A stretch of 64,000 bases of DNA from Opitutales bacterium (lineage in GTDB: Bacteria; Verrucomicrobiota; Verrucomicrobiia; Opitutales; PNEW01): positions 800,001 to 864,000 of the forward strand of contig CBDANS010000007.1 of the NCBI GenBank assembly GCA_965197745.1, in the 5' to 3' direction. Position 1 is the stretch's first letter. Each line of letters begins with the position of its first letter. The position numbers and the translations under genes were made by a program. The notes below the pieces were generated by a model that ran no database searches, was not told the origin of the DNA, and saw only the letters and a program-made list of their open reading frames with translations. Below, in pieces: positions 1 through 44,085 of this stretch.

Positions 1-234
1 CTTTTAAAGCCTAAACGACTGTGGGGATGATCATGGTTATAGGTCTGGCGCCATTGTTCGATTACAACTTGTGCTTCAGCCACGCTGAGCAACACTTCAC
101 GGTTCAAACACTCATCGCGTAAGCGGTTGTGAAACGACTCGATGAAACCGTTTTGCCAGGGACTGCCCGGATCGATATATATCGCCTTGATCTTTTTGTC
201 GGACAACGACTGCTGCACTTGATGAGCAATGAAT

Positions 235-266
235 GGCTTCGCATGTCGTCGCTTCGCTCCTCGGAA
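235..266 (-). mobile_element. 32-nt hairpin micro-insertion (TWCCGAR family) in the DNGS-E-F codon of IS copy 1
   Basis: AGT G[TTCCGAGGAGCGAAGCGACGACATGCGAAGCC]A TTC where AGT GAA TTC is expected. Confidence 0.85.
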
Positions 267-394
267 CACTGCCGTTGTCACTACGGATATAGCTGGGAGC
301 TCCCTCCTTTTCAATGGCCTCGCTAAGCACAGAGAGGACATCCGATGAGGGGAGTTCACGAGCGACCCGGATATCCAGACATTCACGCGTATAT

Positions 395-437
395 GGCTTC
401 GCTTCGCTTGAGTGTCGTCGCTTTCAGCTCCTCGGTA
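395..437 (-). mobile_element. 43-nt hairpin micro-insertion (TWCCGAR family) in the ID-E-Y codon of IS copy 1
   Basis: GAT G[TACCGAGGAGCTGAAAGCGACGACACTCAAGCGAAGCGAAGCC]A TAT; IS copy 3 has uninterrupted GAT GAG TAC here. Confidence 0.85.
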
Positions 438-866
438 CATCGATCAGAGTCATCATCTTTAATGGACCGCCATGGTCTGTGCGATCATGGACAAAGTCCC
501 AGGACCAAAGGTGATTGCGACCGGTTGCTTTAGTAGGCGACCCCGTAGAGACCCCTTGACGGTGTCTACGCTTTTTAGGTGGCTTTACCTGCAACCCTTC
601 TGAACGTCGTACCGCCTGAACAAACTTCCTGTTTGTTGTCCAGCCTTCCTTTACGAGCAAGGCACGGATGCGCCGGTAACCGTAGCAGGGATGTTCCCAG
701 GACAGGGTTATAATCCGCTCGGCCAACCGCTGAGCTTTCTTACTGGCCTGCTTGGGCTGGTAGCTGAAAGTTGACCAACTGAGGCTGAGGTAGGAACAAG
801 CCCTTCGCAACGAGCACAGCCCTCTCTCAGCCGCATCTTTTACTACTCGCTTCTTCTGCTTGGGGC

Positions 867-1133
867 TCACCACTTTTTTGACAGCGTTTCCTCCATTACC
901 TGATTCTTAAGCATTTGATCAGCGAGCATCTTCTTCAACTCGGTGTTTTCTTTTTCCAGCTCTTTAAATCGCTTCGCATCGGCTAGTTCCAAATTGCCAT
1001 ACTTTTTACCCCAGCGATAGAAGGTCTGTTCACTCACGTTGTTGCCTCGGCAGATTTCCTCTACCGTTTTTCCGGTATCGGCTTGCCGCAGTATTGCGAT
1101 GATCTGTTCTGTTGTGTATCTTTTTCTTTTCAT
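867..1133 (-). CDS. IS3 transposase OrfA (HTH)
   Basis: MKRKRYTTEQII...SEQTFYRW...LKKMLAD; ends at the A6G frameshift window overlapping orfB. Confidence 0.93.
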   Translation of the reverse strand: MKRKRYTTEQIIAILRQADTGKTVEEICRGNNVSEQTFYRWGKKYGNLELADAKRFKELEKENTELKKMLADQMLKNQVMEETLSKKW

Positions 1134-1204
1134 GAGGTTATCTGTTTATCCCGATAACCTCTCTCTGTTAATGATACCATTTTTGGGGGTCACTCCAAGT
1201 CCCT

Positions 1205-23664: not shown

Positions 23665-23962
23665 CATCGTCTTCGCCCATACCTGTCTAAATACTTAAAT
23701 TTATAGGTAGTATAATTAAGACTATTTTTCAAACTACCCAACAGACGCGACGACGCGCGTCCCTCCAGAAAAGAACAAATGGGAGGGCCACGCGTCGTCG
23801 TGGCCGCTTAGGAGAATGATCATACAATTGAGATAAATTTAAATAGGATAAAGATTATACTCAAGACACTTTCATTTTTGTGTATCTTGTGCTTTTGGAA
23901 GATGTCGCCCTGCTATTGCAGGACTCGGAAGTGGCTATCAAATCGTGGACGAAATCGAAGCT
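23665..23962. repeat. Composite intergenic repeat (REP pair plus TTGTGC/GTGGCT repeat carrying a micro-insertion)
   Basis: Collinear with 16016..16345, including the GGATAAARATTATACTCA spacer. Confidence 0.85.
23897..23930 (-). mobile_element. 34-nt TWCCGAR-family micro-insertion in an intergenic repeat
   Basis: TAGCCAC[TTCCGAGTCCTGCAATAGCAGGGCGACATCTTCC]AAAAGCAC versus empty TAGCCAC-A-AAAGGCAC. Confidence 0.8.
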
Positions 23963-36365: not shown

Positions 36366-36895
36366 CTATTCGGGGGCCAATTTCATATCACAGAACCAAT
36401 AGGCTAAGACCATTAATTAAGCAAATCCCTGATTGCGCAATGGCTGGATTTAATTCGGTGAATAAAGAAATAATAGAAACGGATCTTCCCACCCGTCGTT
36501 TAGGAAAGACCTGATCGGACCCCGTATTTCGTATCAAATTTTAAGTGAGAGAACTACCGGGTGTTAATGGTTTTAGGATTGATGTATATGAGAGATCTTG
36601 GCGCAGTGAGGGCGTAGCCCGAACGCGGCCAAGAGCGGAAAGGAATGTGACAAACTCTTGTGGGCTTTTAAAGCCTAATCGACTGTGGGGATGTTCATTG
36701 TTATAGGTCTGACGCCATTGTTCTATTAGCACTTGCGCTTCAGCCACGCTGAGCAACACTTCACGGTTCAAACACTCATCGCGTAAGCGGTTGTGAAACG
36801 ACTCGATGAAACCGTTCCAGGGACTGCCCGGATCGATATATATCGCCTTGATCTTTTTGTCGGACAACCACTGCTGCACCTGATGAGCAATGAAT

Positions 36896-36927
36896 GGCTT
36901 CGCATGTCGTCGCTTCGCTCCTCGGAA
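36896..36927 (-). mobile_element. 32-nt TWCCGAR micro-insertion in the DNGS-E-F codon of IS copy 2
   Basis: Identical to 235..266. Confidence 0.85.
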
Positions 36928-37055
36928 CACTGCCGTTGTCACTGCGGATATAGCTAGGAACTCCCTCTTCATCGATGGTTTCGCTGAGTACCGAGAGAAC
37001 ATCGGTTGAGGTGAGCTGTCGAGCTACCCGGATGCGTAAACATTTACGCGTATAT

Positions 37056-37098
37056 GTCTTCGCTTCGCTTGAGTGTCGTCGCTTTCAGCTCCTCGGTA
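37056..37098 (-). mobile_element. 43-nt TWCCGAR micro-insertion in the ID-E-Y codon of IS copy 2
   Basis: One substitution relative to 395..437. Confidence 0.85.
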
Positions 37099-37527
37099 CA
37101 TCGATCAAGGTCATCATCTTTAGCATACCGCCATTGTCTGTACGATCATGGACAAAGTCCCAGGACCAGACGTGATTGCGACCGGTTGCTTTAGTAGGGA
37201 GCCCAGTAGAGATCCCCTGACGGTGTCTACGCTTTTTTGGGGGCTTTACCTGTAAGCCCGAAGAACGTCGCACTGCCTGTACAAATTTCCTGCTTGCCGC
37301 CCAACCTTCTTTCACCAGCAAGGCACGAATGCGCCGGTAACCGTAACGGGGATGTTCCCAGGACAAGGTCAAAATCCGCTCGGCCAATTGCTGAGCCTTC
37401 TTACTGGCCTGCTTGGGTCGGTAGCTGTACGTTGACCAACTGAGGCTGAGATAAGCACAAGCCCTCTAAAACGAGCACAGCCCCTTCTCAGCCGCATCTT
37501 TTACTGCTCGCTTCTTCTGCTTTGGGC

Positions 37528-37794
37528 TCACCATTTTTTTGAGAGCGTTTCCTCCAACACCCGAAGCTTGAGCATTTGATCAGCGAGCATCTTCTTCAGC
37601 TCCGTATTCTCCTTTTCCAGCTCTTTAAATCGCTTCGCATCAGCCAGCTCCAAGTTGCCATACTTTTTGCCCCAGCGATAGAAGGTCTGTTCACTTAGGT
37701 TGTTGCCGTGGCAGACTTCCTGCACGGTTTTGCCCGTATCGGGCTGCCGCAGTATTGCTATGATCTGTTCTGTTGTATATCTTTTTCTTTTCAT
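37528..37794 (-). CDS. IS3 transposase OrfA
   Basis: Near-identical to 867..1133; A7 slippery site. Confidence 0.9.
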   Translation of the reverse strand: MKRKRYTTEQIIAILRQPDTGKTVQEVCHGNNLSEQTFYRWGKKYGNLELADAKRFKELEKENTELKKMLADQMLKLRVLEETLSKKW

Positions 37795-38794
37795 TGAGGT
37801 TATCTGTTTATCCCGATAACCTCTCTCTGTTAATGATACCATTTTTGGGGGTCACTCCATGCCGAATTATACCCGACGGTGCTCAGTCTCGGTGGGGTCC
37901 ATTTAGGAGGTGCGCAGAACGGTCTGGGTATAGAGGGTGATGATGAAAGGGCTGCGGACATGGTGGAAACTGCCTGTCGTTTGGGCATAACTCTTGTCGA
38001 TACTTCGCCCCTTTACGGAAGAAGTGAATACCGAGTCGGAATAGCATTAAAAAGAAATAAATTTTCCGACCTCATAATATCAACTAAAACGGGCACTCAT
38101 CCGGAACGTCAATACAGTTATTCTAATGAGGATCTTCGCTGGTCATTTAATAATAGTCTGCGCATGCTGGGCCGAATATGTGTGGATGTAGCAATGATCC
38201 ACGATCCACCCAGTATGCAACCTGTATTTAAGTCGGGTCATGGATTTGACACTATGGAGGAGCTGCGAAAAGAGGGTAAACTGCGTTATATTGGGCTCGG
38301 CGTTCGGGATCACTCATTTCACATTGAGGCCATCAAAGCGGGTAAAGTGGATGTCATTCTCACTTACGGAGATTTCAATCTAGTTCGAAGAACCGCGCGT
38401 TCTCTTATTGACATGGCCTACAATGAAGGGGTGGGAGTATTTCTCGGTTCACCTCAAATGCTTGGACTGCTTGCTCGTGGTGAGCCCGCACATGTTGCGA
38501 AGGAACAATTAAATCTTACTAATTGGTTTAATGATGGGGATTTTAAAACAGCTCAGGAGTGGTGGTTGTGGTGTCGCGAGCGTGATATACAACTCAGGCA
38601 TTTGAACATGCGTTATATCATGAATAATCCCAAAATAGGATGTGTTCTCACGGGGGGGGGCGACAGTAGAAGAATTAGAACAAAATATTCACGAGGCACT
38701 GACACCAATTCCAAAAGATATATGGAATGAAGCAATGGAGAGGATTGTCATGCTGGATGAAAAAGCTTCGCGCTGAAATGACAAGAAACACATA

Positions 38795-42489: not shown

Positions 42490-42739
42490 ATCTTTAATTG
42501 TTAGAACAGTTTCATCACATAATATAATTTATAAAAATTTAGTCAACGCATCTCATTGTGACTTCATAAATAACTTGTAGTATGTTGAAAAACAACATTT
42601 TATAAATATCAGAAAAAGGTGATGATGACCTTGCTTAAAGTAGGTTATATTAATAGTGCAGGGTGGACGCAGTGGTCGTGACCACGAAAACTGGTCCACT
42701 TGAAAAGTTAGTCTGGTCCAACTAGAAAGGACACAGACA

Positions 42740-43006
42740 ATGAAAGGCAAAAGATACACGACCGAAGAGAAAATACGGATGCTGCGCCAGGCGGACAAAG
42801 GGAAAACGATCCTGGAAGCATGCCGCGAGAACAACATAAGCGAACAGACCTTCCACCGCTGGAAACGTGAGTTTGGGATGATTGATGTCAACCAGGCCAA
42901 GCGGATGAAGGAGCTCGAGAAGGAGAACGCGCGGTTAAAACGGATGCTGGCGGACAAGATGCTGGGGATAGAGATCCTGCAGGAGACCCTCGAAAAAAAA
43001 CTGTAA
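42740..43006 (+). CDS. IS3 transposase OrfA
   Basis: MKGKRYTTEE...SEQTFHRW...ENARLKRMLAD; A8 slippery site. Confidence 0.93.
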   Translation: MKGKRYTTEEKIRMLRQADKGKTILEACRENNISEQTFHRWKREFGMIDVNQAKRMKELEKENARLKRMLADKMLGIEILQETLEKKL

Positions 43007-43981
43007 GCCCTGGGCACAAGCGGCAAGTGGCAGAGAGACTTGTGACTCGGGGCCAGTGTTCGATGCGAGCGGGGTGCCGGTACTTTCGGCTGCACCGTTC
43101 CACCTATGCGTATAGGGCCAAGCATCCGGATGCCTGGCTAACGAAACTAAAAGCGGCAGTAAGGCGGTTATCACGGCAATACGCGAGGTGGGGCTATCCC
43201 AAGATCACGAAGCTGTTGAAGGACGAAGGCTGGCAGGTGGGTAAACGTCTCGTGCAAGGTCTGCGACGTGAACTGGGTCTGGCGATCCCCCCACGCAAGC
43301 CAAGACGCCGGCGCAGGGGTGTCTGCACCGGGCTACCGACAAAGGCCGAACATCCCGACCATGTTTGGACCTGGGATTTTATCCACGATAAGACGGTTCG
43401 CGGCGGCAGTCTAAAAATGCTGACCGTGCTCGATGAGTACACCCGCGAGTGCCGGGTGATCCATGTTGATCGCCATATCAATGCGGAAACGGTGCGCGGT
43501 ATCATGCAAAAACTGCTCGACCGGCATGGGCCGCCAAAATATATTCGTAGCGACAACGGTTCCGTTCCGAGGAGCGAAGCGACGACATGCAAAGCCATTC
43601 ATTGAAAGCCAATTGAGAGCCTGGCTAACTGCGATGAAAATCAAAACCCTCTATATCGAACCAGCAAGCCCTTGGCAGAACGGATACATTGAATCGTTCC
43701 ATGCCCGTTTTCGCGAGGAGTGTTTAAACCGTGAACAGTTATGGACTTTGACCGAAGCCCGCGTGGTCATCGAAGATTGGCGCTGGCTTTACAATCATGT
43801 CCGACCCCACCGCAGCCTCGGCAACATCACTCCACGGCACTTCACTGAAAACCTCAATACCGAAGGCTCGGGCTCCATTCGGGCTACGCCCTCATTGCGC
43901 CCAAGCCTTGACTTCCTCTACCAACTTAACTTCAACATTAACCTCTCCAGACTAACTCTCCCGGTGGACCAGTTTGTGTAA
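43003..43981 (+). pseudogene. IS3 OrfB frameshifted only by a 32-nt micro-insertion
   Basis: WTWDF, VLDEYTREC, SDNGS[insert]FIE, PWQNGYIESF; no other lesion seen. Confidence 0.85.
43565..43596 (+). mobile_element. 32-nt TWCCGAR micro-insertion in the DNGS-E-F codon of IS copy 3
   Basis: TCC G[TTCCGAGGAGCGAAGCGACGACATGCAAAGCC]A TTC; 31/32 identical to the insert in copies 1 and 2. Confidence 0.85.
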
Positions 43982-44085
43982 CCCGACCAGCAGAGACAGT
44001 GACGTCGAGCCAAGGGGGCTGGATCTTGACAATAACTATCGGCCTCTATTTTGTGCCGCTGTGCGAAAGTTTGATTATTAACGCC

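Follow-up and report, generated by a model that had tools for sequence, protein, structure and literature searches.

The 64,000-nucleotide (nt) stretch of DNA analyzed here, referred to as the window, comes from an Opitutales bacterium (contig CBDANS010000007.1, positions 800,001 to 864,000) and contains insertion sequences (IS) of the IS3 family whose transposase genes are interrupted by inserts of 43 and 32 nt. Our analysis indicates that these inserts are probably members of an Opitutales-wide family of 24- to 90-nt insertion modules, apparently so far undescribed, which are non-coding and therefore non-autonomous. In the source genome (4.45 Mb in 7 contigs; the assembly is 92% complete), the module core CCGAGGAGC-N0-12-GCGACGACA had 103 matches compared with 0 for a reversed control, and a two-arm pattern with 5 to 34 nt between the arms was found at 241 places compared with 5 for the reversed pattern. 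Both filled and empty alleles were found for at least nine independent sites, and wherever both states were available the 5' junction was exact and no target duplication was present.

Modules in the IS3 transposase genes

The relevant features of the window are as follows (^ marks the point of insertion).

1..1197, minus strand: IS3-family copy 1, lineage A1, truncated by the window start; Pfam HTH_Tnp_1, HTH_21, rve and rve_3
867..1133, minus strand: orfA of copy 1, 88 amino acids (aa), ending at the A6G slip site; Pfam HTH_Tnp_1, E 1.3e-21
395..437, minus strand: 43-nt module of copy 1, type b, site 1, LID^EYTRE; GAT GAA TAT becomes GAT G[43]A TAT
235..266, minus strand: 32-nt module of copy 1, type a, site 2, SDNGS^EF; AGT GAR TTC becomes AGT G[32]A TTC
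36512..37859, minus strand: IS3 copy 2, lineage A2, with both modules and a lineage-wide TAG stop in the N segment
37056..37098, minus strand: 43-nt module of copy 2, one change relative to copy 1 (GAAGCC to GAAGAC)
36896..36927, minus strand: 32-nt module of copy 2, same sequence as in copy 1
42673..43989, plus strand: IS3 copy 3, lineage B1, ~60% amino-acid identity to lineage A in the C-terminal part
43565..43596, plus strand: 32-nt module of the lineage B copy 3, at the same SDNGS^EF codon; variant TGCAAAGCC
43435..43437, plus strand: empty site 1 of the lineage B copy 3, the GAG codon in VLDEYTRE (GAT GAG TAC)
23897..23930, minus strand: fourth module kind in the window, TTCCGAG, a 6-bp hairpin and CGACATCTTCC; host non-coding motif ATAGCCAC^AAAAGCACAAGA

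Copy 1 in full occupies C7:799848-801197 (1350 nt including both inserts). Its open reading frame segments are intact but for the two inserts, and its orfB contains HTH_21, rve and rve_3 domains (1e-25; Pfam). Assignment to the IS3 family is based on an orfA with a helix-turn-helix domain, an orfB with a DDE integrase core (Pfam) and a -1 frameshift window, A6G in lineage A and A8 in lineage B, where orfA and orfB overlap and orfB takes the -1 frame. The ends are of the TG..CA type (TGGAGTGACC.. ..GATCA and TGGTCGTGACC.. ..GACCA).

Both inserts of copy 1 start with TWCCGAGGAGC, contain GCTGAAAGC or GCGAAGC followed by GACGACA, and end with GAAGCC, without target duplication. The 43-nt insert adds a net 42 nt and keeps the frame but has a TGA inside; the net gain from the 32-nt insert is 31 nt, which shifts the frame. 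The original prediction, made from the letters of the window, had placed both inserts in orfB of copy 1 and the same pair in copy 2. This was confirmed to the base, and its claim that no target sequence is duplicated is borne out by the GAT G[43]A TAT and AGT G[32]A TTC alleles. It also held that the inserts lie at Glu codons of the DDE core. The codons of sites 1 and 2 do fall within the rve core (Pfam), but they are presumably not those of the catalytic Glu, which we take to lie in the ..IESFH.. part of the IS3 DDE motif.

When 72 near-full IS3 copies collected by tblastn were aligned, six polymorphic insert blocks emerged:

site 1: filled in 31 of 72
site 2: filled in 65 of 72
site 3, SPW^QNG, TGG C[43]AAAC, in frame and open: filled in 12 of 72
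site 4, LRD^EC, GAT G[36]A TGT: filled in 8 of 72
A8 window of lineage B, reverse orientation, 23-25 nt, GGGCTTAC[module]A TTTTTTTT: filled in 5 of 72
sixth block: a singleton 28-mer

Among the four sense IS3 types, the insert at site 3 is thus open, that at site 1 is in frame with a TGA, and the other two shift the frame. The state of each site assorts freely in related genomes: L033 has site 1 empty (GAT GAA TAT) and site 2 filled, L038 has site 1 filled and site 2 empty (AGT GAG TTC), and both sites are filled in L034 and L035. Empty alleles of site 1 were seen as GAT GAG TAC in copy 3 of the window and as GAT GAA TAT in L033 and a DNA contig of run X4, and empty alleles of site 2 in the source genome, in L038 and in runs X1 and X4. 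Contigs assembled from sequencing runs of other samples also include A-type empty alleles.

Lineages A1 and A2 have diverged at synonymous sites (dS) by 0.48 to 0.90, with a nonsynonymous-to-synonymous ratio (dN/dS) of 0.08 to 0.19, yet the changes between their modules amount to 0 of 32 and 1 of 43 positions. These dS values, from the N and M segments, agree with the drift of nearby codons that had been predicted between copies 1 and 2. Between lineages A and B synonymous sites are saturated, and the bases abutting the 5' junction differ (GGCAGTG versus GGTTCCG), yet the same 32-mer is found. Near-identical modules in such diverged A1/A2 and A/B flanks indicate that the inserts are, as judged from these comparisons, younger than the divergence of the IS lineages and entered several lineages separately.

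Because of the stop codon and the frameshift in orfB, filled IS copies would be dead and would multiply only via the transposase of intact copies, the modules hitchhiking along. Lineage A2 has a common TAG stop, yet comprises ~15 near-identical copies; its amplification despite this stop implies that trans-mobilization happens. In lineage B, four empty B1 sites were found in copies that are otherwise near-identical, and three of these copies, compared in full, have intact frames. One of the three (C7:1901266-1902552) encodes a fused 415-aa orfAB through an extra A in the A8 slip run and is a possible source of constitutive transposase. The predicted site-selective micro-element that disables transposases is supported by the independent filled and empty sites, the stop codon and the frameshift. 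The concern that the inserts might be confined to one IS lineage was removed by independent filled and empty sites elsewhere and by the filling of both lineages A and B.

Anatomy, target sites and hosts of the module family

The modules share a common plan, consisting of a 5' arm (TWCCGAG), a hairpin, a 3' arm (CGACAY) and a pyrimidine-rich tail ending in CC. The sequence between the arms is variable but its pairing is kept through compensatory changes, as in C-GCA-G, GGC-GAA-GCC, GAC-GAA-GTC, AGC-AAA-GCT, TCCTGTA-..-TGCAGGA and CCCCGT-..-GCGGGG. All 3 possible pairs are present in 28 of 42 inter-arm inserts of nine nt, and at least 3 pairs in 14 of 18 inserts of sixteen nt; stems range from 1 to 7 Watson-Crick pairs. 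In our reading of the sequences, the hairpin of the IS3-type modules (GAGGAGC-loop-GCGACGA) may consist of G-C pairs that alternate with tandem G.A/A.G mismatches. This reading is based on a covarying pair, on a short form in which GGA and CGA are missing together and on loops that vary freely. The covarying pair, the sole variable Watson-Crick pair in the IS3 types, was G/C in 25, A/T in 8, G/T in 1 and A/C in 0 of 34 unique contexts. The short type of module is 24 nt long. In Rfam scans the modules were covered by no known RNA family, the matches being tRNAs and group II intron domains interrupted by modules. Likenesses to hammerhead, twister, hatchet and K-turn were dropped after inspection by eye.

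Comparison of filled and empty alleles revealed a target rule. Where AR follows G (or C), it is replaced by the module plus A, usually with one base fewer at the 3' junction, and insertion occurs in one orientation at N^AR, mostly G^AA or G^AG. Targets for which both states were found are the following:

site 1: GAT GAR TAY
site 2: AGT/TCC GAR TTY
site 3: TGG CAA AAC
site 4: GAT GAG TGT
antisense site in the A8 window: GGCTTAC AG T8
Pelagicoccus hairpin loop (L075): GGCAATGATGG AG CATTGCC
tandem repeat (L049): GGTG AA AGTG
heptamer repeats: CCCTG AA CCCTG and CAATCG A..
non-coding motif: ATAGCCAC AAAAG
palindromic repeat: GGC AA TCCAGG versus GGC[module]A..
T-loop-like sequence: TTCG AA TCC

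Empty targets thus include the IS3 SDNGS-E-F site, GGC^AATCCAGG and TTCG^AATCC. The motif ATAGCCAC AAAAGCACAAGA(G/A), which in the window lies at 23860-23900, was filled 13 times and empty at least 16 times in the genome, the empty forms including ATAGCCAC followed by AAAAAG (9) or by AAAAGG (4). This motif is recurrent and non-coding and is often close to palindromic repeats.

When the 241 modules were sorted by host, 119 were in IS3 in the sense orientation, 7 in IS3 antisense, 38 in a palindromic repeat and 77 elsewhere (many in heptamer repeats); most of the IS3 modules stem from amplification of the IS. A specificity for transposases or Glu codons, as originally predicted, was not supported. 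Members were also found in a CAA codon, the antisense A8 window, group II intron RNA and a reverse transcriptase (RT) gene, and further members in palindromic repeats, tRNA-like palindromes, terminator loops and heptamer repeats. Examples of these hosts are:

C6:916420-916570, C6:654405-654560 and C7:1574012 (minus strand): palindromic repeat
L015:1334-1556 (C5, tRNA-Gln), C6:355392-355700 (tRNA-Asn) and L031 (G002): tRNA-linked units
L054:1440-1484 and 1499-1549, L052, and L050:1499 and 2088: group II intron hosts, domain 1 at CAAA, Rfam RF02001 ~36-39; RT gene within RVT_1

The palindromic repeat (TTGTCATTGCGAGG....CCTCGCAATGACAA) is imperfect and ~150 nt long, and GTC[AC]TTGC[GA]AG had 117 matches in the source genome. 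Some copies have a module in both arms, and many copies are empty. Within the left arm lies CGAGGAGC-AAC-GCGACG or, between GCGAGG and GACG, another compensated hairpin, and this corresponds to the long-type hairpin module. Genes for tRNA-Gln and tRNA-Asn are followed by one or two units of ~150 nt, each ending in a copy of the tRNA 3' end (..CCGGGCAGCCA) and bearing a 38-nt module in a T-loop-like sequence. An upstream stretch of the unit is complementary to the T-arm and the acceptor 3' strand of its own tRNA, and this layout recurs in another genus. In appearance the units recall palindromes of a tandem att-site or tRNA-mimic kind.

Longer modules, whose 3' part has the form GACCGG-hairpin-CCGGACC, occur in other Opitutales families. 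They were found in terminator loops beside tRNA genes, twice in domain 1 of a group II intron (L054; uninterrupted in L050) and, in reverse orientation, in the RT gene of the intron. Modules of type e are hosted by TGGC^AAAAC in IS and by GG(U)C^AAACC in group II introns. Tandem module-module arrays and nested copies also occur.

The long type was detected in all but one of the family's four genomes (the exception is 82% complete) and in 27 of 401 genomes sampled from the class. Its in-order matches by family numbered 13/21, 2/5, 1/3 and 1/27, and the out-of-order matches, which have long GC-rich loops, look like chance. Of 121 Opitutales genomes sampled, 35 contained the short type, and the highest count in a single genome was 162 copies. 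The genome with 162 copies (G432, f105; one contig) has them in tandem arrays, most of them 18 nt inside YTARCCCGCATRTCTCAC(T)-module-AATCTTCTACTGCGCTCCGG..., and it also gave 66 matches to a Y1-like protein, which are diverse paralogues of ~330 aa. By eye, the strands of its modules showed no replichore pattern, an uninformative result because the copies hitchhike in larger repeats. In a scan of one genome per species (at least 117 loci), the genuine members listed were in Pelagicoccus, Coraliomargarita(ceae), Puniceicoccaceae and an Opitutales metagenome-assembled genome, plus locus L176, and the matches listed were mostly chance ones in high-GC phyla. A phage origin was considered and rejected: 2 of 10 long-pattern and ~3 of 61 short-pattern viral loci looked genuine, and the remainder were chance or coding matches. 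A genuine long-type module (GTTCCGAGGAGCGAAGCGACGACAAGACCGG..) is present in the IMG/VR contigs L234 and L236. Full-text literature searches for repeats of this kind in Opitutales or Verrucomicrobia returned nothing relevant.

Movement of the modules and alternative explanations

We propose that the modules move as DNA, most plausibly as a folded single strand that would be handled in trans by a nicking-joining enzyme encoded by the host or by an IS. We put forward this single-strand model tentatively, as a real possibility. Short-patch recombination among IS copies may aid the spread of the modules. The leading candidate for the mover, itself a doubtful one, is a Y1 HUH transposase. A Y1 (HUH, IS200-like) gene is present in the source genome at C6:163149-163742, and relatives were found in 5 of 5 module-rich genomes tested, including the 66 matches in the richest. 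Across the order sample, 20 genomes had both Y1 and the module, 15 the module only, 13 Y1 only and 73 neither, by hand counts in which the genomes are not independent. In contrast, RVT_1 had 0 matches in the source genome G000, in G002 and G003 (one-/two-contig assemblies) and in G468, which carry 40, 36, 52 and 62 short-type modules, respectively. An RT was therefore not found in 4 of 6 module-rich genomes, and it is unlikely to be the mover. Of the enzymes suggested in the original prediction as possibly co-distributed with the inserts, the RT thus drops out, whereas an HUH gene is indeed present but only weakly associated with the modules.

Other movers were also considered. Models based on integron attC sites or on a serine- or tyrosine-recombinase core were discarded, as nothing resembling a common core is shared by the two junctions. 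The IS3 transposase, suggested by the ..CA end of the module plus A, was left as speculation and not adopted because the module 5' end is not TG. A guide hypothesis, in which the variable 3' part pairs with the target flanks, was examined by eye and no complementarity was seen. We regard as unlikely a hairpin-directed system that would home, as efficiently as a drive, into G^AR in conserved IS3 core codons and in conserved parts of group II introns and their RT genes and so inactivate rival mobile elements. If true, the 24-nt module, with its sheared G.A hairpin, would rank with the smallest known mobile DNAs and be either selfish or recruited by the host.

Several observations weigh against a family of modules moving in the proposed way. 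No enzyme that moves the modules was identified in our tests, which covered RVT_1 and one Y1 protein. A module lies within 1.5 kb at 1 of 9 Y1 loci, ~800 nt away, and among genomes of at least 3 Mb (n=62) the co-occurrence is weak (20/12/11/19). No known transposition chemistry accounts for the base missing at the 3' junction, a deficit that is common but not universal, with at least five clean C^AA insertions in the palindromic repeat. By nearest-neighbor folding energies the hairpins are no better than shuffled sequences (z >= 0); the case for the structure is therefore built on covariation and on the known stability of GNA mini-hairpins (cf. PMC13037366) and of sheared G.A pairs. No intact lineage A copy was found in the 92%-complete assembly, which together with the filling of site 2 in nearly every copy is compatible also with a functional role of the insert or with a highly efficient drive. 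Finally, across 1285 nt, the insert and a single synonymous base, 3 nt away from the junction, are all that sets filled B1 copies apart from empty ones. The position of this base suggests templated conversion, that is, short-patch transfer between copies, rather than simple insertion.

The adjacent synonymous base in B1 also favors the explanation that the inserts are one-off ancient insertions, inherited vertically and kept uniform by homologous recombination or gene conversion, the modules now being immobile. Frequent recombination among IS segments is evident from mosaic dS, and recombinant B copies carry the B1 insert variant within B2-type flanks. However, the A and B flanks are identical over 8-11 nt, with mismatches that abut the 5' junction, a length insufficient for RecA conversion. 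Different hairpin alleles occupy dozens of single-copy sites in unrelated DNA (77 "other" contexts), modules form tandem arrays, and the same module types occur at unrelated hosts with only the short target in common (type e). We consider such an immobile relic distinctly unlikely. A route in which small hairpin RNAs, many of them with a CCA end, are copied into DNA where G^A sites are nicked would account for the tails, which mostly end in CC+A, and for the tRNA-linked copies, which end in the tRNA 3' end. Small target deletions are known from target-primed reverse transcription, and RNA intermediates were reportedly suggested by Elhai in 2008 for the small dispersed repeats (SDRs) of cyanobacteria. 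The RVT_1-free genomes, which include the source genome, argue against an RNA origin, and we find it very unlikely.

The original prediction offered as an alternative a removable intervening sequence, which would be spliced from mRNA, skipped by ribosomes or excised from DNA and would thereby gate IS3 expression. In keeping with this, site 2 is filled in most copies, the A1 copies are otherwise intact and belong to a recent burst (0-7 nt apart), the module sequence is nearly invariant across diverged lineages, and excision of GU...GAAG would, in a post hoc reading, put all three shifted or stopped sites in frame. However, both inserts are spanned, and retained, by contigs of two metatranscriptome runs (records 13, 14 and 18). 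The one skip observed in an RNA library comes from an allele whose GAG is intact, resembling the empty DNA alleles of runs X1 and X4; the RNA runs were examined as contigs, from which rare spliced forms could escape. The 7 antisense copies in IS3 and the members in non-coding repeats and terminator loops argue against an intron-like role for the family. In addition, lineage A2 was amplified with its extra stop, lineage B has intact helpers, and conversion of G[..]A TTC to GAG TTT would require bases that are absent. Given their retention in RNA contigs and the existence of intact IS copies, we read the inserts as disabling passengers and not as introns or bypass elements, and we judge removal to be most improbable. 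The chance that the inserts are an assembly or sequencing artifact, a further concern of the original prediction, is practically nil, given contigs bearing them in four public runs from three studies (some contigs having empty alleles), ~100 genome places and other genomes.

Comparison with known short repeats

The closest published analogue of the modules appears to be the SDRs (SDR1-8) of Nostoc/Anabaena. Elhai et al. in 2008 are said to have described SDRs as 21-27 nt long, with a shared compensated hairpin, and nested in heptamer repeats, mini-transposons and themselves. Like these, the modules are tens of nt long, non-coding and built on a compensated hairpin, occur in one coherent clade, lie within heptamer repeats and copies of themselves and use precise sites; neither group has a known mover. 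The 24-nt short type, the compensated hairpins, the heptamer- and palindromic-repeat hosts and the tandem and nested copies agree with the SDRs by description, not by homology. SDR5 in addition inserts at a G^A junction, given by Elhai 2015 (PMC4390886) as GCG^ATCGC. In contrast to SDRs, the modules are from Verrucomicrobiota, have TWCCGAG and CGACAY arms and reach lengths of 90 nt. They also saturate IS3 catalytic-core codons, enter group II intron RNA and an RT gene, and typically show a one-base 3' deficit.

Repetitive extragenic palindromic sequences (REPs) of the CGTC kind are described, in sections of PMC3733652, as having 8-9 bp stems with A-T first pairs and 4-5 nt loops and as lying mostly extragenically in head-to-head dimers. 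The modules partly resemble CGTC/TGTC REPs in having a short stem-loop with what may be an unpaired tag beside the stem, the module reverse strand reading ..TGTCG-stem. According to the same sections, REP tails are often CCA and some REPs lie inside genes; as for the modules, no dedicated transposase is known. The modules, in contrast, have stems of 1-7 bp or stems containing G.A, occur singly and are oriented by an asymmetric target, with junctions known exactly from filled and empty sites. An 8-9 bp palindromic stem was not found in the modules, which have 1-7 Watson-Crick pairs and folding z >= 0. TGTCG does lie beside the stem on the module reverse strand, but relative to REPs the CC+A tail falls on the opposite strand and at the opposite end.

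Similarities were also noted to IS200/IS605 elements, palindrome-associated transposable elements (PATEs) and REPs with REP-associated tyrosine transposases (REP/RAYT, REPIN). These systems, treated by Quentin et al. 2018 (PMC6006769) and Bertels & Rainey 2011 (PMC3116915), share with the modules a hairpin with conserved single-stranded arms, insertion oriented by a short target and an absence of target duplication. In both cases non-autonomous copies far outnumber enzyme genes, and a Y1 HUH gene is present in the source genome of the modules. The modules differ from IS200/IS605 and PATEs in lacking a fixed tetranucleotide target and in usually losing a base at one junction, and from RAYT systems in that they do not flank the Y1 gene, as seen at the nine loci above, and form no REP doublets. 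PATE features seen in the modules are the hairpin with arms, the lack of duplication and the Y1 gene in the genome; on the other side, the 5' flanks follow no fixed tetranucleotide and a base often goes missing at the 3' junction.

Rickettsia palindromic elements (RPEs) and miniature inverted-repeat transposable elements (MITEs) are 100-150 bp or more in length; MITEs have terminal inverted repeats and target duplications, and RPEs are in frame and translated. The modules are like them selfish short repeats within coding sequences and other repeats, but are 24-90 nt long, without inverted ends or target duplication. The TWCCGAG and ..YCC ends are not inverted copies of each other, and no duplication was seen in any filled/empty pair. 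Of the RPEs, RPE-4 and RPE-6 are named in the portion of Di Nocera et al. 2013 (PMC3733652) that concerns such repeats.

How very short repeats such as REPs and SDRs move is a long-standing question, and the module family offers unusually clean material for it, with exact filled and empty alleles, the N^AR rule and a two-arm-plus-hairpin anatomy with natural compensatory variants. Cultured hosts exist in Pelagicoccus and Coraliomargarita. For annotation, the modules break most of the IS3 "pseudogenes" in these genomes and split group II introns and cassette-junction repeats.

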